Origin: Clostridia bacterium
Lineage (GTDB): Bacteria; Bacillota; Clostridia; UMGS1883; UMGS1540
Length of the DNA: 64,000 nt
Reading direction: 5' to 3'
Assembly: GCA_017620205.1 (NCBI GenBank)
Contig: JAFZQX010000010.1
Coordinates: 5,534 to 69,533, forward strand
The notes beneath the pieces were generated by a model. The model did not search any database and was not told the origin of the DNA. It saw nothing but the letters and a program-made list of their open reading frames with translations. Shown in pieces: positions 5,216 through 53,349 of this stretch; position 1 is the stretch's first letter, and each line of letters opens with the position of its first letter. The translations under genes and the position numbers were made by a program.

Positions 5216-6540
5216 TGCTTTTCTCCGTTTCTTTCTCTGATTATAAATCTTACGGGCGTACCCGTGAGCCCGAACGTTTCGCGGATTCTGTTTTCAATGT
5301 AGCGCACATATGAAAAATGCGCAAGCGTCGCGTCGTTTACAAAAAGGATGAAGGTAGGCGGCTTTGTTCCTGCCTGCGTCATATAATAGATTTTAAGGCG
5401 CTTGCCCTTATCGGACGGCGGCTGAACCTTTGCCGTAGCGTCGTTTAAAACGTCGTTTAAAGTGCCCGTTGAAATGCGGCGCGTATTTTGCACATAAACT
5501 TCTTTTACTCTCTCAAACAGATTATCTATTCTCTGGCCCGTTTTGGCGGAGATAAACTCAATGGGCGCGTACTGCATAAAGCTGAGTTTATCGTATACGT
5601 TTCTTTTAAATTCGCCCATTGTTTTTGTGTCTTTTTCTACTGCGTCCCATTTATTAACGGCAACAACAATGCCCTTGCCGCCCTCGTGCGCGTAGCCCGC
5701 GATTTTCGCGTCCTGCTCGCTGACGCCCTCTTCGCCGTCTATCATAATAAGCGCGACGTCGCTTCTCTCAAGAGCCGCCAGAGCGCGGATGACGCTGAAA
5801 CGCTCAATGTTGTCGGTCACCTTGCTTTTGCGGCGTATTCCCGCCGTATCTATGAAAATATACTTTGTCCCGTCTTTTTCAAAATATGAGTCAATAGCGT
5901 CGCGCGTTGTACCCGCTACGCCGCTTACTATCATTCTGTTTTCGCCTAAAATTTTGTTTATAAGAGAGCTTTTGCCTGCGTTCGGCTTTCCTATAACGGC
6001 AACTTTTATATCGCCCTCAGCTGTTTCGTCTTCTCCCTCTTCGGGGAAGTATTTGAAAACCTCGTCAAGCAAATCGCCTACACCCATTCCGTGAATTGAT
6101 GAAACGGGCATGGGCTCGCCTAAACCGAGGTTATAAAATTCGTATAAAGACATCGGCGGCTCACCGGGGGAGTCTACCTTGTTGCATGCTACAACAATAG
6201 GCTTTGAAGCCTTCTGAAGCATTGCGGCAACTTCCATGTCTGACGCCGTCATGCCGTCACGCGAGTCAACAACCAAAACGGTTACGTCGGCTGTGTCTAT
6301 GGCTATCTCCGCCTGCACGCGCATCTCGGCTAAAACCGCGTCGCCGCCCGCGGGCTCAATACCGCCCGTATCGATTATAATAAACTGTCTGCCGTTCCAC
6401 TCCGCGTCTGCGTAAATTCTGTCCCTCGTTATGCCGGGAGTGTCCTCGACAATCGAGATGCGTTTGCCCGCTATTTTATTAAAAAGAGTTGATTTTCCTA
6501 CATTCGGGCGACCTACAATCGCCACAATCGGTTTTGCCAT
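5212..6540 (-). CDS. der: Ribosome-associated GTPase Der (EngA), two GTP-binding domains
   Basis: Two G-domains (GRPNVGKSTLFN and GKPNAGKSSLIN) plus a KH-like C-terminus. Start chosen at the ATG giving MAKPIVAIVG, with RBS AAGGA upstream; the ORF-track start at 6555 is 5 codons longer. Confidence 0.85.
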   Translation of the reverse strand: MAKPIVAIVGRPNVGKSTLFNKIAGKRISIVEDTPGITRDRIYADAEWNGRQFIIIDTGGIEPAGGDAVLAEMRVQAEIAIDTADVTVLVVDSRDGMTASDMEVAAMLQKASKPIVVACNKVDSPGEPPMSLYEFYNLGLGEPMPVSSIHGMGVGDLLDEVFKYFPEEGEDETAEGDIKVAVIGKPNAGKSSLINKILGENRMIVSGVAGTTRDAIDSYFEKDGTKYIFIDTAGIRRKSKVTDNIERFSVIRALAALERSDVALIMIDGEEGVSEQDAKIAGYAHEGGKGIVVAVNKWDAVEKDTKTMGEFKRNVYDKLSFMQYAPIEFISAKTGQRIDNLFERVKEVYVQNTRRISTGTLNDVLNDATAKVQPPSDKGKRLKIYYMTQAGTKPPTFILFVNDATLAHFSYVRYIENRIRETFGLTGTPVRFIIRERNGEKQ

Positions 6541-6551
6541 AATCTGTCCTT

Positions 6552-7847
6552 TCAATCACCTTTGATTTTATCCCATAAATCGTATCCCGAGCAGTCGGTA
6601 ACTATAATATCGGCGCCGAGCGCTTCGCGAACGTTTGTAACCGTGGTGTCGTCTAAAAACGTTTCCGTTCCGTGACGGAGCATAACGCTCGGTATCAAAA
6701 CGCGCCGGCTTTTTATTTTCCCCTTAAGCTGTTTTATAATGTCGCCGCCCGTTATAAGACCTGCAACGGTTATCCTCTCGCCGAAGAAATCGTTGCGCAC
6801 CGTGTGCACCGCTATATCCATATTATTATATCGCGTTTTTGCCATGTTTGCAAGCTTTTTTATCTCATCTCCCGCCGCCATTCCGGTTATAATATCGGCG
6901 GCCGCAGAGCCTTTGGGAGCGCTGTTTAAAGCATCCGAAAATTCATCGTGCATACTGCGTATGAGTCCCACTCCGTTTTCGATTTGGTGATACCCTTCGT
7001 ATTCTTCCTCTGCGGGGATGGGGTATCCCGCCGAAAGATAAAACTCGTCCGCACCGTAAATAAAGCGCGTCCCGAGCTTATTAAGGCAGTCCTTCTGCAT
7101 TTTTAAAATATCGTTTAAAACTGTCTTGCTGTCCTCTTTTTCAAAAGGCTGTGCGCAGTACAGGTTTTCGCGGAATTTCGTTATTCCCATAGGCACAGCC
7201 GAAACGCTTGTGACATAGGGGTAGAGTGACGCAAGATCGCTTACCGTTTTGTAAAACTCCGCACCGTCGTTTACGCCTTTGACGAGAACTATCTGGCAGT
7301 TCATATGTATGTGTCCCGAAGCGAGGCGCCGCATCTGCTCCATTATCCTCTCCGCCTTCGGGTTTTTAAGCATAAACTTGCGCAGACACGGGTTAGTAGT
7401 GTGAACGGATACGTTTATAGGCTCCATGTGCATGCGGATGATTTTATCGAGATCGCTGTCCTTTGCATTTGTCAGCGTTACGTAATTTCCCGTAAGAAAA
7501 GAAAGGCGTGAATCGTCGTCTTTAAAATAGAGGGATTCGCGCATGCCGCGGGGGAGCTGGTCGATAAAGCAGAAAATGCACTTGTTTGCGCAATGCTTTG
7601 CACCGCCGAAAAGCGCGCTTTCGAAAATAACGCCCAGTTCCTCGCCGTACGGATTTTCAATTTCTATTATTTCGCGCTCGCCGCCCGTAATAACTTCAAG
7701 CTCAATTACTTCGCCGCAGAAATAGAATCTCAAATCCAGCTCATCTTCAATTTTATGGCCGTTGCAGGAAACAATTTCGTCTCCCGGCTGAAGACCGAGT
7801 TCCTCGGCAATACTGCCGGGCTCGACAGCCTGAATTTTGTTATTCAC
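6552..7847 (-). CDS. PDZ domain plus DUF512 (radical-SAM-like) protein
   Basis: N-terminal PDZ-like segment (GSIAEELGLQPGDEIVSCNG) and a Cys cluster (CANKCIFCF). This is the conserved position upstream of der in Clostridia. Confidence 0.6.
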   Translation of the reverse strand: MNNKIQAVEPGSIAEELGLQPGDEIVSCNGHKIEDELDLRFYFCGEVIELEVITGGEREIIEIENPYGEELGVIFESALFGGAKHCANKCIFCFIDQLPRGMRESLYFKDDDSRLSFLTGNYVTLTNAKDSDLDKIIRMHMEPINVSVHTTNPCLRKFMLKNPKAERIMEQMRRLASGHIHMNCQIVLVKGVNDGAEFYKTVSDLASLYPYVTSVSAVPMGITKFRENLYCAQPFEKEDSKTVLNDILKMQKDCLNKLGTRFIYGADEFYLSAGYPIPAEEEYEGYHQIENGVGLIRSMHDEFSDALNSAPKGSAAADIITGMAAGDEIKKLANMAKTRYNNMDIAVHTVRNDFFGERITVAGLITGGDIIKQLKGKIKSRRVLIPSVMLRHGTETFLDDTTVTNVREALGADIIVTDCSGYDLWDKIKGD

Positions 7848-8301
7848 GGGTATTCTCCTTAAGTCTTCTGTCTATATCGCGTTTAGCGTCGCGCTGAGCC
7901 ATTGCCTCGCGCTTGTCATACTGTTTCTTACCTTTGCAAAGACCTATCTCCATCTTAACTCTGCTGCCCTTAAAATATAAAGATAAAGGGATAATGGTGC
8001 AGCCTTCTCTCTGCACCTGACCGAAAAGCTTTAAAATCTCTTTTTTGTGCATCAAAAGCTTTTTGTCACGCATTGGGTCTTTGTTGAATATGTTGCCGTG
8101 CTCGTATGGCGTTACATGAACGCCCGTCGCAAATATCTCACCGTTTTTAATTTCGCAGTAGCTGTCCTTAAGGTTTACTTTGCCCGCACGGATAGATTTA
8201 ACTTCCGTGCCGAACAGCTCAACTCCCGCCTCATATTTATCTAAAACAAAATAGTCGTGATACGCTTTTTTGTTGTTTGCTATAGTTTTATTATCCATCA
8301 T
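7840..8301 (-). CDS. smpB: SsrA-binding protein SmpB
   Basis: 153 aa. Matches the SmpB consensus (KTIANNKKAYHDYFVLDKYEAGVELFGTEVKSIRAGKVNLKDSY). Confidence 0.9.
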   Translation of the reverse strand: MMDNKTIANNKKAYHDYFVLDKYEAGVELFGTEVKSIRAGKVNLKDSYCEIKNGEIFATGVHVTPYEHGNIFNKDPMRDKKLLMHKKEILKLFGQVQREGCTIIPLSLYFKGSRVKMEIGLCKGKKQYDKREAMAQRDAKRDIDRRLKENTRE

Positions 8302-10337
8302 TTTCCTCCGAGAATAAAGTCGATAAATCCCGCTTCGCGGTCAACTCCCGCCGCCGAAACGTGCACGCTGTCGCCTATTTTATATCTTTTTCCGTGTCTT
8401 TTGCCGTAAAGGCTTAATGTTCTGTCGTCATATTCGTAATAATCGTCCGTAAGGTCTTCAAGACGCACTAAGCCTTCAACGCAGTTTGGAAGCTCCGCAA
8501 AAAATCCGAAGGACGTAACCGATGAAATTATTGCGTCAAATTCTTCGCCCAAGTGCTTTTCCATATATTCGCATATCTTAAGCTTTGTGGCTTCGCGCTC
8601 CGCGTCCATAGCTTCAAGCTCGCGCACGGACGACTGCTCCGCCGCTTCCGCCGTAAATCTTATGGTTTTGCTGTCAAAGTCTTTGCCGTTTAATGCGGCT
8701 TTTATCATTCTGTGGCAAACAAGATCGGGATATCTTCTTATAGGCGACGTAAAGTGGCAGTAAAAGTCTGCGCCGAGGCCGAAATGACCTTTGTTCTGCG
8801 CGTCATATTTGGCCTTTGCCATAGAACGGAGCATGACGGTGTTTATAGCCTTTTCATACGGCTCGCCTTTGCAGGCATCAAGTATTTCCATAAGCTTTTT
8901 ACCCGAAGGCTTGCCTATAAGCTTAAAATCAAAAAGTGACATAAACTTTCTTAAATCGTTCATCTTTTCGTCATCGGGCGTCTCATGCACTCGGTATACA
9001 AAAGGTATACCGGAAAGGGACGCGTGCTTTGCGAGCGTGCGGTTGCAAACGAGCATAAATTCTTCAATTATTTTATGCGAAACCGTGTGCTCTTCGGGCA
9101 CAACGTCTATCGCTTTTCCTTCACTGTCAAGTATAATGCGCGGTTCGGGAATATTAAAATCCATACTTCCTTTTTCAAAACGGCGTGCCCTGAGCGTTTT
9201 TGAAAGCTCTGCCATGCCGTAAAGCATATCGCGTATCTTTTCATATTTTTCCCAATATTCGCTTTTTTCGTTTTCGAGCATATCCGTAACGTCTTCGTAG
9301 ACAAGGCGGAAATCTGAATTTATTATTGACTCATAAACTTCGTGCGACAAAACCTTGCCGTCTTTTGAAATTTTCATTTCGGTTGTAACGGCGAGTCTGT
9401 CTTCCGCGGGGTTTAAGCTGCAAACGCCGTTTGATAAAATCTGCGGCAGCATGGGGCAGACCCTGTCGGGAAAATAACAGCTTGTGCCGCGTGAAAACGC
9501 CTCTTTGTCAATAGCGCCGCCGAAACGCACAAAATGTGAAACGTCTGCAATGTGAACGTAAAGCGTATATTCCGTGTCGGTTTCTTTAAGCGATATAGCG
9601 TCGTCCAAATCTCTTGCGTCAGCACCGTCTATGGTCACTGTTAAAAGAGAGCGCAGATCGCGTCTGCCCTTTGTTTCAAGACTGTAATCGGAAACCTTAT
9701 CGGCCTCAGCCAAAACGCTTTCGGGAAAGTCCTGCGAAACGTTGTGCTTCTGCATGATAGCAAGAAGCGCGCTTTCGGGACTGTCGAAAAGACCGAGATT
9801 TACAATAACTTCGCCGCGCATATTTTCGTAATCCGTGATTTTTACCGTAACGCGGCAGTTTTCGAAAGTCTCTGACGGCTCGGCTATGATGATATCACAG
9901 GGCGCATCGTTTGTTTCTACCTTGCCGTTTTTGTAAAGACCGGTAAAGGTACTTGCCGCGCGCTCCAATATCTCCGTGATTTTTCCTTCTCTGCTGTGTG
10001 ATGTGCCCGTAATCTGAAGAATACGCACCACGTCGCCCGTGAGCGCCGTGCCGCAGTTTTCGGGCGAAATATAAAAATCGCCCTCATCCGTTTCGACAAA
10101 GCCGAAGCCCTTGCGGTTTAAGCGGAATTTTCCGCAAAATGAGCCTTTTGTTTTGGTGGCTTCAAATCTGCCGCCGCGAAGCCTTCTTACTTTGCCCTCA
10201 TCCTCAAGCTCGTAGAGCAGGGTACAAAGCTCCGAAAGGCAGTCTTCCGCGTCGAGCATCAGCGCTATTTCATTAGGTGTCAGCGGAAATTTTGCCTGAT
10301 CGCGCAAAAACCCGAGGAGTTTTTCTTTTTTTGTCAT
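8298..10337 (-). CDS. rnr: Ribonuclease R
   Basis: RNB catalytic domain, N-terminal cold-shock-like segment and C-terminal S1 domain. Start set at the ATG giving MTKKEK; a GTG three codons upstream at 10346 is also possible. Confidence 0.85.
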   Translation of the reverse strand: MTKKEKLLGFLRDQAKFPLTPNEIALMLDAEDCLSELCTLLYELEDEGKVRRLRGGRFEATKTKGSFCGKFRLNRKGFGFVETDEGDFYISPENCGTALTGDVVRILQITGTSHSREGKITEILERAASTFTGLYKNGKVETNDAPCDIIIAEPSETFENCRVTVKITDYENMRGEVIVNLGLFDSPESALLAIMQKHNVSQDFPESVLAEADKVSDYSLETKGRRDLRSLLTVTIDGADARDLDDAISLKETDTEYTLYVHIADVSHFVRFGGAIDKEAFSRGTSCYFPDRVCPMLPQILSNGVCSLNPAEDRLAVTTEMKISKDGKVLSHEVYESIINSDFRLVYEDVTDMLENEKSEYWEKYEKIRDMLYGMAELSKTLRARRFEKGSMDFNIPEPRIILDSEGKAIDVVPEEHTVSHKIIEEFMLVCNRTLAKHASLSGIPFVYRVHETPDDEKMNDLRKFMSLFDFKLIGKPSGKKLMEILDACKGEPYEKAINTVMLRSMAKAKYDAQNKGHFGLGADFYCHFTSPIRRYPDLVCHRMIKAALNGKDFDSKTIRFTAEAAEQSSVRELEAMDAEREATKLKICEYMEKHLGEEFDAIISSVTSFGFFAELPNCVEGLVRLEDLTDDYYEYDDRTLSLYGKRHGKRYKIGDSVHVSAAGVDREAGFIDFILGGK

Positions 10338-12247: not shown

Positions 12248-14068
12248 CTATTCAACTGTTACGGATTTTGCCAAATTACGGGGCTTGTCAACATCACAGC
12301 CCTTAAGACACGATACGTGATAAGCTAGAAGCTGCAACGGAACAATTGCCGCAACGGGAGCCAGCAGCGGTGAAGATTTCGGCAGTTTAAAGTAAACGTC
12401 AAAAGTCTTTTCGCAGTCTTCACAGTCAGGCGATGCAAAGCCAACCGTAAACGCGCCGCGCGCTATAACCTCTTTCATGTTGCTCAGTGTTTTGCCGCTT
12501 ATCTGTTTGTCTGTTATTATAGCGATTGTAACGGTGCCGTCGTCAATTAACGCGATAGGACCGTGTTTTATTTCGCCGCTTGCGTATGTATCGGAATGTA
12601 TGTAAGAAATTTCTTTCATTTTGAGCGACGCTTCAAGAGCCACGCTGTAATCAAGACCGCGGCCGAGGAAGTAAACGTCAAGCTCTTTGTAGATCCTCTC
12701 CGCGAGCTTTTTAACATCATCGTTTAAGTTTAATACCTCAGTAACCTTTTCGGGGAGAGATAAAATCTCTTTCTTGAAGAAATCAAGCAAGTTTTGCGGT
12801 GTTTTCTTTGTAATTTCAGCCGCCGCTACCGCGGTGAGGTATAAAGCGACAAGCTGTGTCGTATATGCTTTTGTTGACGCAACCGCGATTTCGGGGCCTG
12901 CATATGTATAGAAAACATAGTCGCTCTCTCTCGCTACGGAGCTGCCCACAACGTTTGTAATTGACAAAACGGGCGAGCCGTATGTATGAGCGAGGCGGAG
13001 CGCCGCCAAAGTATCTGCCGTTTCACCGGACTGGCTTATAAGTATAACGCCTGTCTTTTCTGAAATTAACGGGCCGCGGTAACGGAACTCGGAAGCCAAA
13101 TCAACCTCAACGGGAATTCCCGCGAGCGTTTCTATGGCGCGCTTGCCGACTAAACCTGCGTGGTAAGCCGTGCCGCAGGCAACTATGTAGAGCCTGTCAA
13201 CCTTTTCGAAAAACTCTTTATTCATTTCAACAGGGTCGATCTGTAAGTTTTCGTCAATTCTGCCGATAAGCGTTCTCTTTATTGCGGCGGGCTGCTCGAA
13301 AATTTCTTTGAGCATGAAGTGCTCATAGTCGCCTTTTGTTGCGTCCTCCGCGCTGTAATCAACGTGGTAGATATCTTTCGGGGAAGGAGCACCGTTTTTG
13401 TCCGTAATATCAACGCTGTTTTCTGTAATTACTGCAACATCGCCGTCGTTTAAAAGATAAAAATCTTTCGTGTATGATAAAACGGCGGGGATATCGGAAG
13501 CTATAAAGTTTTCGCCCTTACCAAGACCGATAATTAAGGGACTGCCTTCACGCGCCACCACAATTTTGCCGTCCTCGCGGGAGGAGATAACGCAGAGCGC
13601 GTAGCTGCCTATAAGCCTTGATATTGTTTTTGTAACGGCTTCTCTTAAATCGCCGTTATAGTAATAGTCAATAAGATGAGGCACAACCTCTGTATCCGTT
13701 TCGGATATAAACTCATATCCTTCGTTTTTGAGCTCTTCTCTTAAAACCTCATAGTTTTCAATGATACCGTTATGTACAACAACAATATCGCCCGCTTTGT
13801 TTGCGTGCGGATGCGCGTTTATCTGCGTCGGCGCGCCGTGCGTTGCCCAGCGCGTATGACCTATGCCTATGTTGCCCGATATATCCGTTGCGGCAACTTT
13901 TTCTCTTAAATTTGAAAGCCTGCCGCGCTCCTTGCACAAAAGAATATGACCGCCGCTTAAAACGGAAATGCCTGCGGAGTCATAGCCGCGGTATTCAAGA
14001 CTTTCAAGACCGTTTAATAATATATCTGTCGCGTTTTTATCGCCGATGTAGCCAACTATTCCACACAT
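12248..14068 (-). CDS. glmS: Glutamine--fructose-6-phosphate aminotransferase (isomerising)
   Basis: True start is MCGIVGYIG with the catalytic Cys2. Two SIS domains, and the protein ends ...KSVTVE. The longer ORF-track start at 14182 runs into the ribozyme leader and is rejected. Confidence 0.9.
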   Translation of the reverse strand: MCGIVGYIGDKNATDILLNGLESLEYRGYDSAGISVLSGGHILLCKERGRLSNLREKVAATDISGNIGIGHTRWATHGAPTQINAHPHANKAGDIVVVHNGIIENYEVLREELKNEGYEFISETDTEVVPHLIDYYYNGDLREAVTKTISRLIGSYALCVISSREDGKIVVAREGSPLIIGLGKGENFIASDIPAVLSYTKDFYLLNDGDVAVITENSVDITDKNGAPSPKDIYHVDYSAEDATKGDYEHFMLKEIFEQPAAIKRTLIGRIDENLQIDPVEMNKEFFEKVDRLYIVACGTAYHAGLVGKRAIETLAGIPVEVDLASEFRYRGPLISEKTGVILISQSGETADTLAALRLAHTYGSPVLSITNVVGSSVARESDYVFYTYAGPEIAVASTKAYTTQLVALYLTAVAAAEITKKTPQNLLDFFKKEILSLPEKVTEVLNLNDDVKKLAERIYKELDVYFLGRGLDYSVALEASLKMKEISYIHSDTYASGEIKHGPIALIDDGTVTIAIITDKQISGKTLSNMKEVIARGAFTVGFASPDCEDCEKTFDVYFKLPKSSPLLAPVAAIVPLQLLAYHVSCLKGCDVDKPRNLAKSVTVE

Positions 14069-14094
14069 AATTATATAAATCCTTTCGATGTAAT

Positions 14095-14250
14095 TTTCTT
14101 TTATACATTGCAAAGCCCCCTTTGTTCGCGGATTGCTCCGTGTTTTTAAAGACTTGCTTACGACATGCCTGCCGTGGGACATCCGCCGAAAAATTCGATA
14201 CTCCCCAACCTCGTCTGCCTGCCGTCTGCCCAGCAGGTACCGGCGCTTTT
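14095..14250 (-). ncRNA. glmS ribozyme: glmS ribozyme (GlcN6P-responsive self-cleaving riboswitch) in the glmS 5' leader
   Basis: The minus strand reads AGCGCCGGUACCUGCUGGGCAGACGGCAGGCAGACGAGGUUGGGGAGUAUCGAAUUUUUCGGCGGAUGUCCCACGGCAGGCAUGUCGUAAGCAAG... It contains the invariant core CGAAUUUUCGGCGGAUG and the 5' AGCGCC cleavage-site context of the glmS ribozyme. Confidence 0.85.
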
Positions 14251-14314
14251 TTGCTTTTACTCAGACCTTTCTTAAGATTTGGCAAACTTTATTAATATAT
14301 AAATATACATAATA

Positions 14315-14387
14315 ATTATATATTAATATACTCTTTTTGTCAAGGTGAAGGCTAAAACCTTGACAAATGGTAATGTTATAGTATAAT
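14315..14387. promoter_or_regulatory. Divergent sigma-A promoters: minus-strand TTGACA-17-TATAAT for the glmS leader, plus-strand TTGACA-16-TATAAT for rlmD
   Basis: The palindrome TTGTCAAGG-N12-CCTTGACAA (14337-14366) supplies -35 boxes on both strands. The -10 is TATAAT at 14315-14320 (minus) and 14382-14387 (plus). The rlmD ATG at 14397 lies about 9 nt after the plus -10 with no RBS, suggesting a leaderless mRNA. Confidence 0.6.
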
Positions 14388-15783: not shown

Positions 15784-16419
15784 TTGAACGAAGCAAATCT
15801 TTATAAAGAACTTGGGACATTGACAAAGGACAAAGATAGTTGGAAAGAGAGCATTCCTTATGTTTCATCGCTTCTTTCTTATGATTCTGTAAAGATAAAG
15901 GCAAAAGCGCTGTGGATGCTTGGTGAGATGGGGTTTAGATACCCTCTTCCGGTACAGAAATCCTTACCTGCAATAGCGTCCTTTTTAAATAGTGCAGAGC
16001 CGCTTTTACGTGAGCGCGCGGTAAATGCTCTCGGCAGGATAGGAAGAGCCGATTACCAACTGATTGAGCCTTATTGGGAAAACCTGTTTCGTTTTGCTTC
16101 GGATGAGCAACCAAAGGTGAGGTTAAGCTTCATTTGGGCATCGGAAAATATCGCTACAAACACACCGGATATTTACAAGGATTATATTCCGATATTTGAG
16201 GGACTACTGAGCGACTCAGATGATAAGGTAAGGATGGAAGCGCCGGAAATTTTCCGAGTGCTCGGCAAACGCAGACCAGAGTTCATCAGACCGTATCTGG
16301 AAGGGTTGTGGCAGAAATCTGAAACAGACAGTAACCGTGTAGTAAGAATTCACTGTTTGGGTGCGATTAAAGCATCCGGGCACGGCTCTCCTGTCAACAC
16401 AAAGCACACGGACAAATAA
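15784..16419 (+). CDS. HEAT-repeat domain protein
   Basis: Repeated helical units of the form LRERAVNALGRIG / DKVRMEAPEIFRVLG. Confidence 0.5.
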   Translation: MNEANLYKELGTLTKDKDSWKESIPYVSSLLSYDSVKIKAKALWMLGEMGFRYPLPVQKSLPAIASFLNSAEPLLRERAVNALGRIGRADYQLIEPYWENLFRFASDEQPKVRLSFIWASENIATNTPDIYKDYIPIFEGLLSDSDDKVRMEAPEIFRVLGKRRPEFIRPYLEGLWQKSETDSNRVVRIHCLGAIKASGHGSPVNTKHTDK

Positions 16420-16447: not shown

Positions 16448-17086
16448 ATGAAATTTAAAACACTTATAATACTGCAGCTCGGCGGCATAGCCCTGTTTGT
16501 GCTTTTTACGGCGGTTTTGTATTTTACAGGTCTGTTTAATCCCGTAAGCGCAGTGCTCGTTTATATTCTGCTCGGCGTCGGGAATGTTTTAAACGCGCAT
16601 AATATTCTTATGAAGCCTATTGAAGAGATAAGCATACACGATAATCTCACGGGCTGCTATAACCGCACAAAGCTTGAAAGCAAGATACCGCAATACGAAA
16701 AATATCATAACTATGCGGTGATTTTCTTTGATCTTGACAACCTTAAACTGATAAACGACACATACGGTCATGACGACGGCGATAAAATTCTTGTAGAAGC
16801 TGCAGAAAGGCTTCGTATATGGCAGGAATACGGCGATCTGTACAGAATAGGCGGCGACGAATTTTTAGTTGTTGTACCAAATATAGATCAGCCGCTTCTT
16901 GAAGAAATTCTGTCCGCTTGGAAAGAAAAACAGACAGAGCTAAACGCTGATTACGGCGCTGATTATAAATGTGAGTTCAGCTACGGCGCGGCATATAAAA
17001 CGGAAGATGAGCCGCTGACGTTTGAAGAAGCTATGAACATCGCCGATGAAAAAATGTATGAAATGAAGAAAAGCGGCAGGGCTTAA
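16448..17086 (+). CDS. Diguanylate cyclase (two N-terminal TM helices plus GGDEF domain)
   Basis: RIGGDEFLVVV active-site motif. Start set at the ATG giving MKFKTLII, with RBS AAAGGA upstream. The longer ORF-track start at 16361 overlaps the upstream gene. Confidence 0.75.
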   Translation: MKFKTLIILQLGGIALFVLFTAVLYFTGLFNPVSAVLVYILLGVGNVLNAHNILMKPIEEISIHDNLTGCYNRTKLESKIPQYEKYHNYAVIFFDLDNLKLINDTYGHDDGDKILVEAAERLRIWQEYGDLYRIGGDEFLVVVPNIDQPLLEEILSAWKEKQTELNADYGADYKCEFSYGAAYKTEDEPLTFEEAMNIADEKMYEMKKSGRA

Positions 17087-17108
17087 TAACAGAAAGGATC
17101 TGTAGAAA

Positions 17109-18011
17109 ATGTATTATAAAAATGTGCTCGACTTAATAGGGAATACTCCGCTTTTAAGCTTGGAGGAGACAACGGGATTTAAGATTTATGCAAAAGCGGA
17201 GTTTTTAAATCCGGGCGGCAGCATAAAGGACAGAATAGCTTTAAATATGATAGAAGAAGCGGAAAAAGACGGAAGACTGAAACCCGGTATGACGATAATT
17301 GAGCCTACATCGGGCAACACGGGCATAGGCCTTGCGCTTTGCGGCGTAAGAAAAGGATATCATGTAATAATAGTTATGCCCGAGAATATGAGCGAAGAAC
17401 GAAAAAAGATAATCCGCGCTTTGGGCGCGGAGCTTGTTTTAACAGACCCGAAGCTGAGCATCGCGGGCTCAGTTGATAAAGCTATGGAGATTGCAGAAAG
17501 CTCGCCGGATTACTTTGTTCCGCAGCAGTTTCAAAACCCGGCAAATCCGCAGATGCACTATAAGACGACGGCTGTAGAACTCTGTGAACAGCTTGGTAAA
17601 AAAATAGACGTATATGTATCGGGTATCGGCAGCGGCGGCACGCTCCAGGGCGTAAGCCAATATCTTTTAGAGAAAAACCCCGACTGCAAAATAGTTGCGG
17701 TTGAGCCGAAAAACGTATCGGCACTTTTGGGTGATGAGCCGGGACTTCATCAGATACAAGGCATAGGCGACGGCTTTATTCCCGATATTTTAGATACATC
17801 TATTATCACCGATATCATAGAGGTTACGGACGATGACGCTATAAACACCGCGAGAGAGCTTGCACGTGTTCAGGGGCTTTTAGTCGGCACTTCATCGGGT
17901 GCAAACGTATGGGCGGCAGAGCAGATGGCTGAAAAATACGGAAAAGACAAAGTTATAGCAACCGTACTGCCCGACCGCGCGGAAAGATATTTCAGCACGG
18001 CGCTTATATAA
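17109..18011 (+). CDS. cysK: Cysteine synthase A (O-acetylserine sulfhydrylase)
   Basis: PLP lysine motif GGSIKDRIAL, TSGNTGIGLA, and the GIGSGGT loop. Confidence 0.85.
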   Translation: MYYKNVLDLIGNTPLLSLEETTGFKIYAKAEFLNPGGSIKDRIALNMIEEAEKDGRLKPGMTIIEPTSGNTGIGLALCGVRKGYHVIIVMPENMSEERKKIIRALGAELVLTDPKLSIAGSVDKAMEIAESSPDYFVPQQFQNPANPQMHYKTTAVELCEQLGKKIDVYVSGIGSGGTLQGVSQYLLEKNPDCKIVAVEPKNVSALLGDEPGLHQIQGIGDGFIPDILDTSIITDIIEVTDDDAINTARELARVQGLLVGTSSGANVWAAEQMAEKYGKDKVIATVLPDRAERYFSTALI

Positions 18012-18038
18012 AACCAAAAGTTTTGGGAGTGTGTTAAA

Positions 18039-18851
18039 ATGGCTGATTACGGACTTCAAAACAAAGTGGCAATAATCACGGGCGCGAATAATCCACAGGG
18101 GATAGGCGCTGCGACGGCTATGGCGTTTGCCCGTGAAGGCGCGAAAGTCGTTTTGGTATATAAGAAAATAAAAAGACCGTTTGATAAAAGTAAGACAGCC
18201 GAAAACGGCGTTGACAGATATTACGAAGCAAACGCGGGAAACGCCGACAAAGTAGCCGCAAAGCTTAGGGAGATAAACGCGGATTGTCTTTTGCTCGAAA
18301 GCGATATTTCAGATGAAAACGCCGTAAAAGAGATTTATTCTGCGGCAGAAGAGAAATACGGAAAAGTAGATATACTCGTAAACAATGCGGCCACAGACGA
18401 TGAAAACGGTTTTGATACGATAGAGAAAATAACTCAAAGAGTAATAGACGATACGTTTGCCGTAAACGTCCGCGGAAGCCTTTTAATGACAAGGGAATTT
18501 ATAAACCGCCGCGGCGATTACGGAAGAATTATAAATATCTCAACCGACGCCGCGCAGGCTTTCGCAGGGCAGATAACATACGGCGCGAGCAAAGCGACCC
18601 TGGAAGCTTTAACAAGAAGCATAGCGCTCGAAGTGGGAAAGTACGGAATTACCGTAAACTGCGTAGCACCCGGCCCTACCCAGACGGGGTGGATTGACAA
18701 AGACCTCGAAAAAGCGGTTGTGCCTTTAATTCCCATGGGCAAACTGATTGGGCCCGACGATATTGCAGATACAATTTTGTTTTTGGCAAGCGAAAAGGCA
18801 AAAATGCTTACGGGGCAGGTTATAAAAGTTTCGGGCGGACACGCGCTTTGA
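18039..18851 (+). CDS. SDR-family oxidoreductase
   Basis: Rossmann TGANNPQGIGAA, NNAA, and YGASKA catalytic Tyr-Lys. Confidence 0.75.
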   Translation: MADYGLQNKVAIITGANNPQGIGAATAMAFAREGAKVVLVYKKIKRPFDKSKTAENGVDRYYEANAGNADKVAAKLREINADCLLLESDISDENAVKEIYSAAEEKYGKVDILVNNAATDDENGFDTIEKITQRVIDDTFAVNVRGSLLMTREFINRRGDYGRIINISTDAAQAFAGQITYGASKATLEALTRSIALEVGKYGITVNCVAPGPTQTGWIDKDLEKAVVPLIPMGKLIGPDDIADTILFLASEKAKMLTGQVIKVSGGHAL

Positions 18852-18868
18852 AGTTTAAACTATAAATT

Positions 18869-18900
18869 AAAGGCTGAGGCAATTTTTTGCCTCAGCCTTT
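18869..18900. terminator. Bidirectional terminator between the SDR gene and the HD-GYP gene
   Basis: Perfect hairpin aaaggctgaggc-aatttttt-gcctcagccttt. Confidence 0.6.
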
Positions 18901-21279
18901 TTAAATACTCGAATAATATTCTTCGATTTTCGGACGGGCTTTTTCAAAATACACCAAAATTTTGCTGTCAAATTGAGTGCCGTCGCCGTCCATAATTATC
19001 TTATGAGCCTCTTCAAATGACATTTTTTCTTTATACACGCGCTTTGAAACAAGTGCGTCATAAACATCGGCAACCGCCATGATCCGCGCTTCTATGGGTA
19101 TCTCTTCGCCCGTGAGTTTTTCGGGATAGCCTGTGCCGTCATAGCGCTCGTGGTGGTAATGCGCCATGTTTATGGCTATTTGTCTGAACCTTTCGTTATC
19201 AACGCTTTCTACGATCTGTGAAAGAATGCGCGCGCCTTCTTTTGCGTGAGTTTTCATAACCTCATATTCTTCCGGCGTAAACCTGCCGGGCTTGCGTAAA
19301 ATAGCGTCGTCAACGGCGATTTTGCCGATATCATGCATCGGCGCGGCGTTTATTATGCAGTCGCAAAACTCATCGTCTAACTCAAGACTTTCGTCTTTTT
19401 GCATCTCTTCCGTCAGAATCTTGACGACATCGCTCGTTCTCTTTATATGGCCGCCCGTGGAATTATCGCGGCTTTCAATCATGGTAAGCATTCCTATTAC
19501 AAAGTTTTGCTGCAGATCAGCTATGTGCTTGTTCTTTGTTTCAACATCGGTTTTCAATGCGGTCTCGTATTTTTTCATGGAGAAATAGTTGCTGAGAAAC
19601 CCGCCGACTGAAATGGCAAACAAGCTGAGTACCACTATAAGACCTTTGATATTTGTCATATTCAGTCTTTTGGTTAAGACATCCATATACTCGCTTTCGC
19701 TCATTTCGAGAATTTCTTGCGGTACTGTTTTGTCATGGTATGCATGAAAATCATTTAATACATTTAAAGTCGATTCCTGTTCAAGCTTGTCCATCCATAA
19801 AATTCCCAGCAAAAGGATAATGGACACCAATACAATCCATACGATAATAGCTTTGCCGAAATGCCTTGCGCGGTCTTTGGAAATTACACGGTGGAAGAAT
19901 ATCATACCAAAAACCGACCAAAGGATAAATAAAAGATACGTTTCGGAGCTTAAAGAATCGGAGCGCAGACCCGGAATGAGTATAAACACGCCAAAGACAA
20001 ACATTGCTATTAAAACAATGAGCCCTGCGGCAAAACTGCTTTTATTGTTATCCTGCTTTGCGCATTTCATTGCAGCAGCGGCAACAAACCCGTAGAGAAA
20101 AACAGCAATAATTGTTGTAACGTCAACAATCCAGCCAATGGCAGAGCGCCCGAGGAAAAGTATGAATAACGAAATCGAGCCGACGAACAAAATATTATTT
20201 GCCGGAATTCCTTTTTTATTAAGGTTTGTAAATCTTTCGGGAAGTATTGAGTCCTTACCGATTACGCGCATCATGCGCGAAAGAGCCCATATATTTGAAA
20301 TAAGACTTGTTGCTATAAGTGCAAAAAGCGAAAAGAAAAGCAAAGTTATGCCGAAACCGCCGAGATAATAACCGGCGGCGTAAAACGCGGGAAGCGCCTT
20401 GAGGCCGGAAAGATTGCCTAAATCGTTTATATATTCAACCCAGCTGCCGTATTCCGGGGGATACGCCGTAACGGAAAGAAGCGTTACAAAAATATACAGA
20501 GCTGTTGTTATGATTATGGACAACGCCAAAACCCCGAAAACACGTTTTTTGGGGAAATTAAACTCAGTTGACGAGTGCGTAACGCTTTCAAAGCCTATAA
20601 ACGCCCATGGAGATACAGACGCTATTTTTGCAACTTGAGCAATTGGCAGGCTGTCGGGTGCAAAAGAAGGGTTAAACCCCGAAGAGCCCGATAAAAAACG
20701 GATTATACCGACTATAAAGCAAACAGAAATACCGGTAACAAATACGGCGGCAAGGAATACCATTGCGTTTGCCGTTGCTTTTTTGCTGTTTATCATGATA
20801 AATACGGTAAGTGCTATAACAGAAGCTGTCAGAAGCAGCTCGCCGGCGTAGATTTCATATCCGAAAATAGTATAGAGATAGCCAAAACGGAATACGTCTC
20901 CGAAAATGTAGCGCACAAAAAGCGGAACCGCCGTAGCGTTTGCCCAAAAGATAGAAGCATAAAGCAAAAATACAAACCAGGAGATTAGAAAAGCACGGTC
21001 GTAGCCGAATATTTTTTTCGTAAAAAAGTATACGCCTGTGCCTTCCGGATAACGGTTTGCAAGATAGTGATAGTTTAGACATACCAAAAGCATGATAGCG
21101 GCGCCTGTTAAAAGGCCCAAAACGGTGCCCCAAGGTCCCGCCTGTTTAAGATATGTGTTGCTGGTGACTACCAGCGACCCCCAGCCGACGCTTGTGCCTA
21201 CGGCAAATGCCAAAACTGTTAAAGGAGACAATATGGGTTTTAGTTCCTGAACGGATGAATTAGATTTCATATTTTTCAC
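18901..21279 (-). CDS. c-di-GMP phosphodiesterase: N-terminal about 12-TM amino-acid-permease-like (APC-fold) domain fused to a C-terminal HD-GYP domain
   Basis: C-terminus carries HDIGKIAV...HHERYDGTGYP (HD-GYP). The N-terminal 500 aa are polytopic and resemble an amino acid permease (VLAFAVGTSVGWGSLVV...). Confidence 0.7.
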   Translation of the reverse strand: MKNMKSNSSVQELKPILSPLTVLAFAVGTSVGWGSLVVTSNTYLKQAGPWGTVLGLLTGAAIMLLVCLNYHYLANRYPEGTGVYFFTKKIFGYDRAFLISWFVFLLYASIFWANATAVPLFVRYIFGDVFRFGYLYTIFGYEIYAGELLLTASVIALTVFIMINSKKATANAMVFLAAVFVTGISVCFIVGIIRFLSGSSGFNPSFAPDSLPIAQVAKIASVSPWAFIGFESVTHSSTEFNFPKKRVFGVLALSIIITTALYIFVTLLSVTAYPPEYGSWVEYINDLGNLSGLKALPAFYAAGYYLGGFGITLLFFSLFALIATSLISNIWALSRMMRVIGKDSILPERFTNLNKKGIPANNILFVGSISLFILFLGRSAIGWIVDVTTIIAVFLYGFVAAAAMKCAKQDNNKSSFAAGLIVLIAMFVFGVFILIPGLRSDSLSSETYLLFILWSVFGMIFFHRVISKDRARHFGKAIIVWIVLVSIILLLGILWMDKLEQESTLNVLNDFHAYHDKTVPQEILEMSESEYMDVLTKRLNMTNIKGLIVVLSLFAISVGGFLSNYFSMKKYETALKTDVETKNKHIADLQQNFVIGMLTMIESRDNSTGGHIKRTSDVVKILTEEMQKDESLELDDEFCDCIINAAPMHDIGKIAVDDAILRKPGRFTPEEYEVMKTHAKEGARILSQIVESVDNERFRQIAINMAHYHHERYDGTGYPEKLTGEEIPIEARIMAVADVYDALVSKRVYKEKMSFEEAHKIIMDGDGTQFDSKILVYFEKARPKIEEYYSSI

Positions 21280-21380
21280 CTTGCATTATATTTTTTCTGC
21301 CCGGTTCAAAACTATAATTATATTATATTCTTCTTTTTTTGTTTTTTCAAGACTTAAGCAAAATTTATATAAACGCAGAT

Positions 21381-22680: not shown

Positions 22681-22791
22681 CAAATTCTGATTTGTGAGAT
22701 AAGGGGACGGAGCTGTTGTTTTGGGATTAAGACAACTGAGCCGCCCTCTTGCTTTTTGCAAAGAAAAACGGAGCAAAGCCCATTCCGACGA

Positions 22792-23355
22792 GGCGCGCTG
22801 TAAGGGATAAAGCCGCCTGCGGCGTCTTTCCTGCTCGGCGACCTTAAAAATAGTTAATCGCGAAAAAGTGGTAGCGAGCCAAAGGCGTTATGAGGGCGCT
22901 TGCAACCGAATAGCCGACGTGAGCGTGCTTTTTTGCGAAAGAGGAGGAGCAAGGGATCGGGCGGATGTTTTTATGTAAAGAAAAACGAAGCAAAGCGGAC
23001 TTCGCTCCGACGAGCCTTCGCACCACGCGCCTACAAAACATGCCACAGGCATATTTTGCCGGGCGGCGCGTGCCCCCTCGGTGTTCGAATCCCTTCCACC
23101 GCAAAAAAAAATATACCGCGCATACCGGGTGATATACTCGGGATATTGGCGCGCTGTAAGGGATAAAGTTTTGCTTCGCAAACCTTTCCTGCTCGGCGAC
23201 CGAAAGCCTCGCTTTCAGTACCCGCCTTCGCACCACGCGCCTACAAAACATGCCACAGGCATATTTTGCCGGGCGGCGCGTGCCCTCTCAGGGTTCGAAT
23301 CCCTTCCACCGAAAAAAAATATACCGAGCATATCGGGTGATATACTCGGTATATT
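22792..23355. repeat. Tandem degenerate repeats (one 356-bp unit, then one 208-bp unit), each beginning with the tRNA-Arg 3'-end sequence GGCGCGCTGTAAGGGA and ending with the tRNA-Arg terminator hairpin
   Basis: GGCGCGCTGTAAGGGA occurs at 22792, 23148 and 23356. A roughly 150-bp segment (cttcgcaccacgcgcctacaaaacatgcc...gggtgatatactcgg) is duplicated with a few mismatches. Inside each unit there is a tRNA T-arm-like GGGTTCGAATCCCTTCCACC. Confidence 0.7.
23312..23353 (-). terminator. Rho-independent terminator immediately 3' of tRNA-Arg
   Basis: Minus strand shows hairpin aatataccgag...ctcggtatatt followed by an 8-T run. A second copy lies at about 23104-23147. Confidence 0.6.
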
Positions 23356-23431
23356 GGCGCGCTGTAAGGGATTCGAACCCCTGACCTACTGGTCCGTAGC
23401 CAGTCACTCTATCCAGCTGAGCTAACAGCGC
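23355..23431 (-). tRNA. tRNA-Arg: tRNA-Arg (anticodon ACG), CCA encoded
   Basis: Minus strand reads GCGCTGTTAGCTCAGCTGGATAGAGTGACTGGCTACGGACCAGTAGGTCAGGGGTTCGAATCCCTTACAGCGCGCCA. Anticodon loop CUACGGA. Confidence 0.85.
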
Positions 23432-39459: not shown

Positions 39460-40106
39460 GCATAGCCGATTTTAAAAACAATTCTCCGGGGGCAAAGCGA
39501 GGAGTAAATTTTACGGCATAGGTCCGAGTAGGATTTCCCGCAGGCATTCCCGTGCGTCGCCGCTTCGGGAGGTTTCCCATTAAATGCCGCCCGTCAAAGA
39601 CGGAACCGGATTACCACTAAGTCCGCACTGCAATCCTCATCGCCTTTTCGGGAAGTCTCAAAAGAGATTACCCGAAACAGCCTAGGAGATTTCCTCGACA
39701 GTCACACCAATTCTTATCCTCTATTGCAAACATAATTTCAAACAGCAATAACCGCCGCATTGTTGGCCGGCAAATTGGGGTCTGATCTGTTATCCTTCAT
39801 GCCCACTCAAGGAAGGCTACTCTGCAAACAGCACAAATGCGCACCGCTAAACAGGTTTAATCCTAAGTCGTACTTTGTTTTTGTCGTAAAATTCGAGCAA
39901 CTTCGAAAGCACAATCATAGGTCTCCACGGAAAAGGGGACAAGCTCCGCATGCCATTGCGGTTTGCCCCTGAACCTTAACCCCCAGCACAAACCCCCGAC
40001 TGGGCGTCGGAAGCCTGCACCAGGAACTTCATCGATGTGCCCTTTAACGGATTTTTAGGCCCGTCCTGGGAAAAGGCTGAACTGACTAGGATACTGCGCC
40101 ACCCGT
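39460..40106 (-). ncRNA. About 650-nt GC-rich structured non-coding transcript; candidate OLE-like large ncRNA
   Basis: A 920-bp ORF-free interval noticeably GC-richer than the flanking DNA. A near-consensus sigma-A promoter (TTTACA-17-TATAAT, minus strand, -10 at 40114-40119) points into it. It contains stable GC stems and a UUCG-type loop (gccgcttcgggagg). No RNase P P4, tmRNA tRNA-like end or SRP domain IV motif was found. The gene order ncRNA-small TM protein-dxs-tlyA equals the known ole-oapA-dxs-tlyA locus. Confidence 0.45.
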
Positions 40107-40113
40107 CAAGCGT

Positions 40114-40142
40114 ATTATAGCACAAGATAAGCATATTGTAAA
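40114..40142 (-). promoter_or_regulatory. Sigma-A promoter driving the ncRNA/oapA/dxs transcript: TTTACA-17-TATAAT
   Basis: Minus-strand TTTACA at 40137-40142 and TATAAT at 40114-40119. Confidence 0.55.
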
Positions 40143-53153: not shown

Positions 53154-53159
53154 ATACCA

Positions 53160-53349
53160 TAGATTTCAGGGCGGGGTGCAATTCCCCACCGGTGGTAAAG
53201 CCCACGAAGGATTTCCAAAAATCCCCGATCCGGTGTAATTCCGGAGCCGACGGTGATGGCAAAGCTTTTGTCAAAGTCCGGATGAGAGAAGTCGATATGG
53301 TGTTATATTGTCACGCCCTGAGAAGATTTATTTGAAAGGGTGTTTTTTT
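53160..53349 (+). ncRNA. FMN riboswitch (RFN element) with intrinsic terminator overlapping the ribU start
   Basis: TTCAGGGCGGGGTGCAATTCCCCACCGGTGGTAAAGCCCACGA...CCGGTGTAATTCCGGAGCCGACGGTGA...AAAGTCCGGATGAGAGAAG matches the RFN consensus. The terminator acgccct..agggtgtTTTTTTT spans 53313-53349. Confidence 0.85.

Follow-up and report, generated by a model that had tools for sequence, protein, structure and literature searches.

A putative ligand-gated cyclic di-GMP phosphodiesterase with an APC-fold permease as its membrane domain, encoded in a Clostridia bacterium genome

The window analyzed here, a whole 64-kb stretch of Clostridia bacterium DNA (contig JAFZQX010000010.1), carries a gene that joins an APC-type permease and an HD-GYP domain, the latter predicted to degrade cyclic di-GMP (c-di-GMP), in a single polypeptide; we call it the permease-HD-GYP gene. 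An earlier note made from the letters of the sequence had pointed to this gene and to a second c-di-GMP gene, for a small GGDEF protein at 16448-17086, and the list of open reading frames (ORFs) contains both, the permease-HD-GYP gene on the minus strand at 18901-21279 and the GGDEF gene on the plus strand at the position given. Residue numbers throughout are those of the 792-amino-acid (aa) protein that begins at the GTG codon. A public copy (P0001) begins instead at an ATG at 21270, three codons inside the GTG; it is 789 aa long and 100% identical, and a protein identical to P0001 was found on 5 independent contigs. Pfam bears out the two-part architecture that the note had described. Its APC-type permease is matched by AA_permease_2 over residues 17-456 (E value, 1.7e-22; 80.4 bits against a cutoff of 27), with profile positions 1-426 of 427 covered, and AA_permease matches the same part (E value, 1.8e-19; 70.2 bits against a cutoff of 24.6). 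The complete C-terminal HD-GYP domain is matched by HD_5 over residues 600-774 (E value, 9.9e-32), with the motif HHERYDGTGYP at 709-719, and by HD (E value, 3.9e-18). The domain matches of both ORFs are far above chance level.

The note had counted 12 transmembrane (TM) segments. This number holds for the APC core, which spans residues about 20-467 with both of its termini in the cytoplasm, as judged from hydropathy and loop charges; the protein as a whole, however, has 14, since hydropathy and the AlphaFold2 model add a TM13/TM14 hairpin. After the core come a K/R-rich turn on the cytoplasmic side (ISKDRARHFGK), TM13 (residues 471-500), an acidic, extracytoplasmic loop (residues 501-539, with 8 D/E versus 3 K/R), and TM14 (residues 540-566), which brings the chain back into the cytoplasm. 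[quoted passage not shown] The loop of the hairpin is missing from a short subgroup of HD-GYP-type relatives.

The AlphaFold2 model, a monomer built on 66 orthologs, reached a mean predicted local distance difference test score (pLDDT) of 85.7 and a predicted template modeling score (pTM) of 0.70. It renders TM13 and TM14 as a long hairpin (pLDDT about 87-93 over residues 481-570, as means of 10-residue blocks), and a single helix, residues 528-605, runs from TM14 into the HD-GYP domain. When we compared the model with the PDB using Foldseek (TM-scores normalized to the target), the N-terminal half matched AdiC, GkApcT, y+LAT1, LAT1, BasC, and ApcT with TM-scores of 0.72-0.81, among them 0.79 for AdiC (5j4n) and 0.77 for GkApcT (6f34). 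KimA with bound c-di-AMP (8b70, 8b71) was also among the structural matches of the APC core. The C-terminal part matched PA4781 (4r8z; TM-score, 0.84), PmGH, and DvhD. By sequence, the closest solved relatives of the N-terminal part are AtCAT4 and xCT, with GkApcT reached through the family profile (1e-15, all 12 TM segments aligned); those of the C-terminal part are PA4781 (3e-33), PmGH (3e-30), and V-cGAP3 (1e-29). The note had named 7TMR-DISM as an example of the membrane sensor families to which the N-terminal region might belong instead. No sensor-family Pfam model matched at an E value of <=0.01, and among the 50 PDB matches listed only APC/LeuT-fold transporters cover the N-terminal region, with no MASE or other sensor family, so that the permease fold stands.

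The residues that a census of HD-GYP domains found to be characteristic are an HD dyad, HHExx(D/N)GxGYP, KPG, and RxY[K/R], together with a partly conserved Glu for a third metal (PmGH E185); in that census, KPG is assigned to substrate binding and RxY[K/R] to c-di-GMP specificity. All of the census motifs, the third-metal Glu apart, occur in the window protein, and across the 66 orthologs each is invariant or conserved to at least 90%. They comprise H611, H649-D650, H678, H709-H710-E711, D714, and G715xG717-Y718-P719, along with K663-P664-G665 and R747-V-Y749-K750. From these motifs, we infer an active, c-di-GMP-specific phosphodiesterase. In the alignment to PmGH, the E185 position is taken by Ser607, and because the third-metal Glu is thus replaced, we place the domain in the binuclear subclass with PA4781, which is compatible with its belonging to the HD-GYP family at large. 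One ortholog (P0020; L005 6001-8373) reads HHEWVNGAGYL, the Pro of GYP having become Leu, while a related ortholog (L018) reads HHEWVNGSGYP and keeps GYP. Judging from the P0020 motif, catalysis may be altered or lost in some members of the lineage.

We mapped the ligand pocket through the family-profile alignment to GkApcT and the functional data published for that transporter (PMC5803215). The ligand backbone contacts G42-T43-G44 in TM1 of GkApcT correspond to G32-W33-G34 in the window protein, and those of TM6, which also form the gate (F231-A232-Y233-I234-G235), correspond to W225-A226-F227-I228-G229. The essential acidic residue of TM6B, D237, is matched by E231, and M321 of TM8, which governs selectivity, is matched by N329. 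At the position of K191, where the K191A substitution abolishes transport and leaves binding intact, the window protein has F180, and at that of the proton-coupling residue E115 it has L106. Within the close family the mapped residues vary little or not at all, position 106 excepted, which is L, V, or T and never acidic; the TM6 motif P224-W-A-F-I-G-F-E231 and the TM1 motif G32-W33-G34 are invariant in the family. Conservation on this scale indicates that the ligand-site scaffold (TM1 G-W-G, TM6 PWAFIGFE, and TM8 N329) is under strong selection. The lost transport residues had been entertained as proof of a pure sensor. We dropped this argument, because the same set is found in 24 relatives that have 12 TM segments and no fusion (466-490 aa, 28-33% identity): the Trp of GWG, a hydrophobic residue in place of K191, and a nonacidic one in place of E115. 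A difference between classes is seen at position 329 alone, which is Asn in 26 of 31 c-di-GMP fusions and variously F, N, or L in unfused proteins and kinase fusions, a pattern which hints at different ligands.

Assigning a substrate from the named APC families (CAT, BcaP, YjeH, LAT, ABT, and others) was also tried and rejected, no score coming near its NCBIfam cutoff. That the ligand is an amino acid, an amine, or an organocation is thus a guess from membership in the superfamily, within which amino acid availability, the signal proposed in the note, is plausible. The gene neighborhoods, which differ in every lineage examined, gave no clue to the ligand.

The permease-HD-GYP protein belongs to a large family in which one membrane module is combined with many outputs. 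A word-indexed search returned 1,291 relatives, the closest of which are all full-length fusions; the 66 full-length orthologs are 42-85% identical to the window protein, with uninterrupted reading frames. Proteins of about 745 aa join the same N-terminal module (about 50% identity) to a canonical RIGGDEF cyclase domain, and proteins of about 1,320 aa join it to GGDEF-REC-GGDEF-EAL. Among 22 HD-GYP-type and 25 GGDEF-type proteins sampled, the module has 149 positions at which one residue is common to at least 90% of each class. Both classes also share a junction motif after TM14, N-(Y/H)-F-S-M-(K/R)-K-(Y/W)-E, which in the window protein reads N-Y-F-S-M-K-K-Y-E.

The note had called the architecture uncommon, which is true of the literature. 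In nature, however, we confirmed at least 556 loci, counting one genome per species. The best 80 of these loci come nearly all from ruminant gastrointestinal metagenome-assembled genomes (MAGs), mostly of Clostridia; some are labeled Erysipelotrichaceae, Coriobacteriia, Flexilinea, or even Proteobacteria, bin labels that need caution. Two of the 80 belong to isolates in culture, Ruminococcus sp. YE71 (ortholog at 61% identity) and Lachnospiraceae bacterium RM5 (55%). The outputs at these 80 loci are HD-GYP at 10, GGDEF at 30, GGDEF-REC-GGDEF-EAL at 39, and unclassified at 1, and a single MAG, RUI072, holds one HD-GYP-type and one GGDEF-type fusion. At another locus (L008 2801-13925), five c-di-GMP genes lie on the same strand, encoding GGDEF, permease-GGDEF, REC-GGDEF-EAL, GGDEF-EAL, and a second permease-GGDEF protein; permease-type sensors are duplicated locally there.

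An exhaustive phmmer search with residues 1-575 against 1.84 billion cluster representatives extended the range of outputs, with 294 matches at an E value of <=1e-30. The best 150 of these 294 include 87 long proteins: 57 histidine kinases (44 with a receiver domain), 17 GGDEF proteins, 5 EAL-containing proteins, 3 HD-GYP proteins, 1 SpoIIE/PP2C phosphatase, and 4 that are unclassified. Pfam confirmed nine, as AA_permease_2 with HisKA, HATPase_c, and Response_reg (with or without Hpt or PAS_4) and as AA_permease with SpoIIE. In the kinase- and PP2C-fused relatives, the module is 33-43% identical to that of the window protein. Two apparent stand-alone 14-TM modules (P0104 and P0106) have C termini that look frameshifted or truncated, and we did not count them. 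At NCBI, P0235 (MCR5813063.1, Desulfovibrio sp.), a hybrid histidine kinase, and P0332 (MBR2705796.1, Mogibacterium sp.), which at 946-1,250 aa join the permease-like module to signaling domains, go by no other name than "amino acid permease"; this under-annotation is systematic, and wherever the family's proteins have a name in the sources it is that one, even in the case of a hybrid kinase of 1,250 aa.

The 12-TM core of the window protein is 51-57% identical to the cores of GGDEF-type proteins and 37-40% identical to those of the short HD-GYP subgroup, whose HD-GYP domains are 65% identical to that of the window protein. Because the core is thus closer to the GGDEF types while the HD-GYP domain has its counterpart in the short subgroup, outputs have been swapped in evolution. 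The same module stands before at least five output types (HD-GYP, GGDEF, GGDEF-REC-GGDEF-EAL, hybrid kinase, and PP2C), and because one membrane module is joined to so many signaling outputs, we regard it as a sensory input domain, the role that the note had proposed for the permease part.

With reasonable rather than high confidence, we propose that the permease-HD-GYP protein is a putative one-component, ligand-gated c-di-GMP phosphodiesterase in which the APC fold serves as the receptor. The proposal starts from what is directly observed, namely, the fold, the topology, the catalytic motifs, the conserved junction, and the recurrence of one module before five or more outputs, and transporter-fold receptors have precedents in Sd-Amt1 and Ks-Amt5 (PMC11152129) and in GerAB (10.1101/2021.10.28.466322). 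A small solute, probably an amino acid, an amine, or a related organocation, would bind in the pocket between the unwound TM1 and TM6, and the rocking-bundle motion of the APC core would then shift TM12 to TM14. In a dimer, the two helices that each run from TM14 into the signaling helix (S-helix) could change their register or packing and so switch the HD-GYP pair on or off, whichever the direction of regulation may be and whether or not transport accompanies signaling. The TM13/TM14 hairpin and the long signaling helix would in this way relay the conformational change to the binuclear-type HD-GYP domain, and c-di-GMP would be hydrolyzed in the cytoplasm.

Several points weigh against this proposal. 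The product is uncertain between pGpG and GMP, with PmGH E185 aligning with Ser607. The changes from K191 to F180, E115 to L106, and T43 to W33 mark an uncharacterized APC branch and are no sign of a loss of transport, and a pure receptor and a working transporter cannot be told apart from their sequences. No named APC subfamily reaches its NCBIfam cutoff for the fusion, nor does any for the unfused relatives; the best match to the fusion is TIGR00909 (68.5 bits against a cutoff of 556.8), and BcaP (59 bits against 690) and TIGR00906 (CAT; 37 bits against 682) score lower. Dimerization and the helix mechanism are drawn from other S-helix proteins, the AlphaFold2 model being monomeric.

The two halves could also work independently of one another, as a constitutive phosphodiesterase tethered beside an ordinary amino acid transporter for local control of c-di-GMP or for co-expression, with no allostery between them. 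The linker is indeed not uniform in the wider family, where some kinase fusions (P0198) join the output right after TM12 without TM13 and TM14. We nevertheless consider this arrangement unlikely, since the junction motif and the continuous TM14/S-helix are kept across the HD-GYP and GGDEF classes, the module has been recombined repeatedly with many outputs, as true sensor domains are, and we found no credible stand-alone 14-TM module. Quite unlikely, in our judgment, is a reversal of the wiring, in which a working transporter would have its uptake regulated by the HD-GYP domain as that domain bound or hydrolyzed c-di-GMP. KimA, an APC-fold K+ importer controlled by c-di-AMP on its cytoplasmic domain, offers the model for such a reversal and, as noted above, is among the structural matches of the APC core in its c-di-AMP-bound form, and the capacity for transport may be intact, given that unfused relatives have the same pocket residues. 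Hybrid histidine kinases and a PP2C phosphatase, to which the same module is attached, are however outputs and not nucleotide sensors, and the HD-GYP domain keeps its full catalytic set in place of a degenerate, binding-only site.

The earlier note had also grouped the permease-HD-GYP gene with its GGDEF neighbor as a c-di-GMP module. The neighbor is, as the note described it, a membrane-anchored GGDEF protein; it has two N-terminal hydrophobic/TM segments and a Pfam GGDEF domain at residues 63-211 (E value, 2.4e-31; 109 bits against a cutoff of 23.8; TIGR00254, 101 against 37.4). RIGGDEF is intact, and there is no RxxD I-site, the position reading QEYG. As the note had it, 1.8 kb separates the two genes; this interval contains cysK (TIGR01139, 399 bits, above its cutoff) and a gene for an SDR oxidoreductase. 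The plus-strand order is rlmD-like, HEAT-repeat, GGDEF, cysK, and SDR, with gaps of 22-28 bp, and a consensus scan found a perfect sigma-70-like promoter match at 14360-14387, ahead of this run of genes. A six-frame motif and tblastn scan of the window revealed no further GGDEF or HD-GYP gene, and no c-di-GMP riboswitch was found in it.

The grouping itself finds no support. The two genes are convergent and lie in separate units, and their adjacency is lost in orthologs. It is thus very unlikely that the small GGDEF cyclase and the permease-HD-GYP protein form a dedicated pair for synthesis and degradation, even though they lie so close together, cysK between them would suit an amino acid theme, and the arrangement is repeated on two further contigs that encode the identical protein (L097 and L098). 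The hairpin that stands between the units is a likely terminator; orthologs at 82, 76, and 68% identity have wholly different neighbors; and around three proteins homologous to the small GGDEF protein (56-59% identity), neither a permease-HD-GYP gene nor cysK nor an SDR gene is present. On yet another contig encoding the identical protein (L096), the upstream genes are kept and the downstream side holds a 92-aa ORF and a nonribosomal peptide synthetase (NRPS) gene (5535-8370). Another ORF with a c-di-GMP motif lies within about 4 kb at 11 of 79 related species-level loci and at 2 of the 10 HD-GYP-type loci, at most a mild tendency to cluster, with no fixed pair. Gene order and the predicted signals mark the permease-HD-GYP gene as an independent transcription unit, and the GGDEF gene, whose product is a small membrane cyclase of an ordinary kind, is its neighbor by chance or at the level of the strain. 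An artefact of assembly or gene calling that joined a permease gene to an HD-GYP gene, conceivable in a metagenome-assembled genome, has a negligible probability given the identical ORF on 5 independent contigs, the 66 uninterrupted full-length orthologs, and the fusions in cultured Ruminococcus sp. YE71 and Lachnospiraceae bacterium RM5.

The surroundings of the GGDEF gene yielded further observations. In L096, the NRPS gene and the 92-aa ORF replace the SDR-cysK-GGDEF-HEAT segment (window 16448-18851), the cause being either a strain-level rearrangement whose breakpoint coincides with the terminator hairpin or a chimeric assembly. A 211-aa HEAT-repeat protein (Pfam HEAT_2, HEAT, PDS5-like) is encoded at 15784-16419 on the plus strand; its gene precedes the GGDEF gene by 28 bp in what looks like one operon, and this HEAT-repeat/GGDEF pairing recurs in L097 and L098. 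Homologs of the small GGDEF protein (57-59% identity) at L093 7001-7648 and L095 7001-7648 lie on contigs that resemble large phage genomes, with long same-strand runs of small ORFs without a Pfam match; L093 adds an RNA ligase and split RNA-polymerase-like ORFs, and L095 adds a UvrD-like helicase, an SNase, and a guanylate kinase.

Elsewhere in the window, a full-length OLE (ornate large extremophilic) RNA lies at 39473-40118 on the minus strand (448 bits, where the gathering score is 50; the match spans model positions 1-616 of 616), its host being an apparent ruminant-gut Clostridia genome. A glmS ribozyme (14102-14258, minus strand; 90.8 bits) directly upstream of the glmS gene (12248-14182, minus strand) and a flavin mononucleotide (FMN) riboswitch (53158-53297, plus strand; 99.5 bits) are ordinary. 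Direct repeats with a period of about 210 nucleotides (nt) occupy 22753-23372, as two copies of 100 nt and of 61 nt (95% identity) and a weaker third; they sit between a nitroreductase-like gene and spoIIE and reach into tRNA-Arg(ACG) (23355-23431, minus strand), and they may have arisen by duplication of sequence flanking the tRNA or be the scar of an integration.

Table 1. Positions in the window of the permease-HD-GYP gene, its parts, and adjacent features
Feature	Position	Strand	Details	Basis
Permease-HD-GYP gene	18901..21279	-	792 aa; GTG start at 21279; stop codon 18901-18903	ORF list, Pfam
12-TM APC/LeuT-fold core	19879..21231	-	Residues 17-467	Pfam, hydropathy, AlphaFold2 and Foldseek, profile alignment to GkApcT
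TM13/TM14 hairpin	19582..19869	-	Residues about 471-566	Hydropathy, charge counts, AlphaFold2 helices 477-515 and 528-605
Cytoplasmic signaling-helix linker	19483..19581	-	Residues 567-599; continuous with TM14	AlphaFold2, junction motif
HD-GYP domain (predicted c-di-GMP phosphodiesterase)	18904..19482	-	Residues 600-792	Pfam HD_5 and HD, PDB sequence matches, conservation
Small GGDEF protein	16448..17086	+	212 aa; neighbor of permease-HD-GYP	Pfam GGDEF, sequence, homolog contexts
Sigma-70-like promoter, TTGAAA-17-TATAAT	21322..21350	-	11/12; just upstream of permease-HD-GYP start	Consensus scan only
GC-rich hairpin	18869..18900	.	14-bp stem; between convergent SDR and permease-HD-GYP genes; likely bidirectional terminator	Consensus scan

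The window protein is a new version of a known theme, the transporter as sensor. Sd-Amt1 (Amt-HAMP-GGDEF) and Ks-Amt5 (Amt-histidine kinase) are ammonium receptors (PMC11152129) in which, as here, a whole transporter fold is covalently fused to a c-di-GMP enzyme or a kinase and one input serves several outputs. They are built, however, on an 11-TM trimeric Amt with a HAMP link and take NH4+ as their ligand, whereas the window protein has a 12-TM APC/LeuT fold, a link through the TM13/TM14 hairpin and the S-helix, and an HD-GYP output that is predicted to degrade c-di-GMP. CbrA and CrbS (SLC5/SSS-STAC-histidine kinase) likewise carry a LeuT-fold transporter domain at the N terminus of a signaling protein, and CbrA is reported, in a study cited in PMC11109136, both to transport histidine and to signal; unlike the window protein, they belong to the SSS family and not to APC (TC 2.A.3-like), have a soluble STAC bridge and a kinase output only, and occur in proteobacterial hosts. 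GerAB, whose APC-superfamily fold was modeled on GkApcT, senses amino acids in Firmicutes through a TM1/TM6/TM8 pocket (10.1101/2021.10.28.466322). Although it too uses an APC-superfamily fold as a sensor, GerAB is the B subunit of a spore germinant receptor, has no fused enzyme, and signals within the spore GerA-B-C complex. Its Pfam family is Spore_permease, which is different from that of the window protein.

GkApcT and the CATs (SLC7A1-4; AtCAT4, MmCAT1) are the nearest N-terminal relatives. The window protein keeps their TM1 GxG and TM6 motifs and the acidic residue of TM6B and, like the CATs, has 14 TM segments; it differs in its low identity to them (about 15-18%), in the hydrophobic residues at K191 and E115, in Trp at T43 and Asn at M321, and in its attached signaling domain. 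With PA4781 and PmGH it shares all of the core metal and substrate motifs, and with PA4781 the lack of the third-metal Glu, but its input is an integral-membrane permease fold in place of the REC domain of PA4781 or the GAF domain of PmGH. In full-text searches of openly available literature, outside TCDB and subscription journals, we found no description of an APC permease fused to HD-GYP, GGDEF, a kinase, or PP2C, and the text of the HD-GYP census, tables apart, mentions no permease or transporter. The combination almost certainly appears, uncommented, in databases of domain architecture. Partipilo et al. (2024) still described the reported cases of transceptors as rare and exclusively eukaryotic (PMC11109136).

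On a broader scale, we advance only tentatively the idea that these proteins represent a large, undescribed superfamily of bacterial APC-fold receptors, in which a 12-TM permease would sense for at least five outputs and which in ruminant-gut anaerobes would be wired to both the synthesis and the degradation of c-di-GMP, sometimes in one genome. If this is true, one protein would by itself connect a nutrient in the gut directly with a switch of lifestyle. Public annotation hides the family under the name of amino acid permease. Hundreds of signaling proteins, including hybrid kinases of 1,000-1,400 aa, are annotated in this way, which distorts censuses of both transporters and signaling in the rumen. 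The APC family proper would join the short list of transporter folds that bacteria have recruited as receptors (Amt, SLC5, and the ECF S-component fold). Very few c-di-GMP enzymes have a known signal, and in gut or rumen Clostridia almost none do. A well-understood fold, with pocket positions established by work on GkApcT, AdiC, and GerAB, offers a tractable route to what rumen bacteria sense; cultured carriers are available, and paralogs join the same sensor to opposite enzymatic outputs. The window protein is of moderate interest in itself and of greater interest as an entry point to this family.

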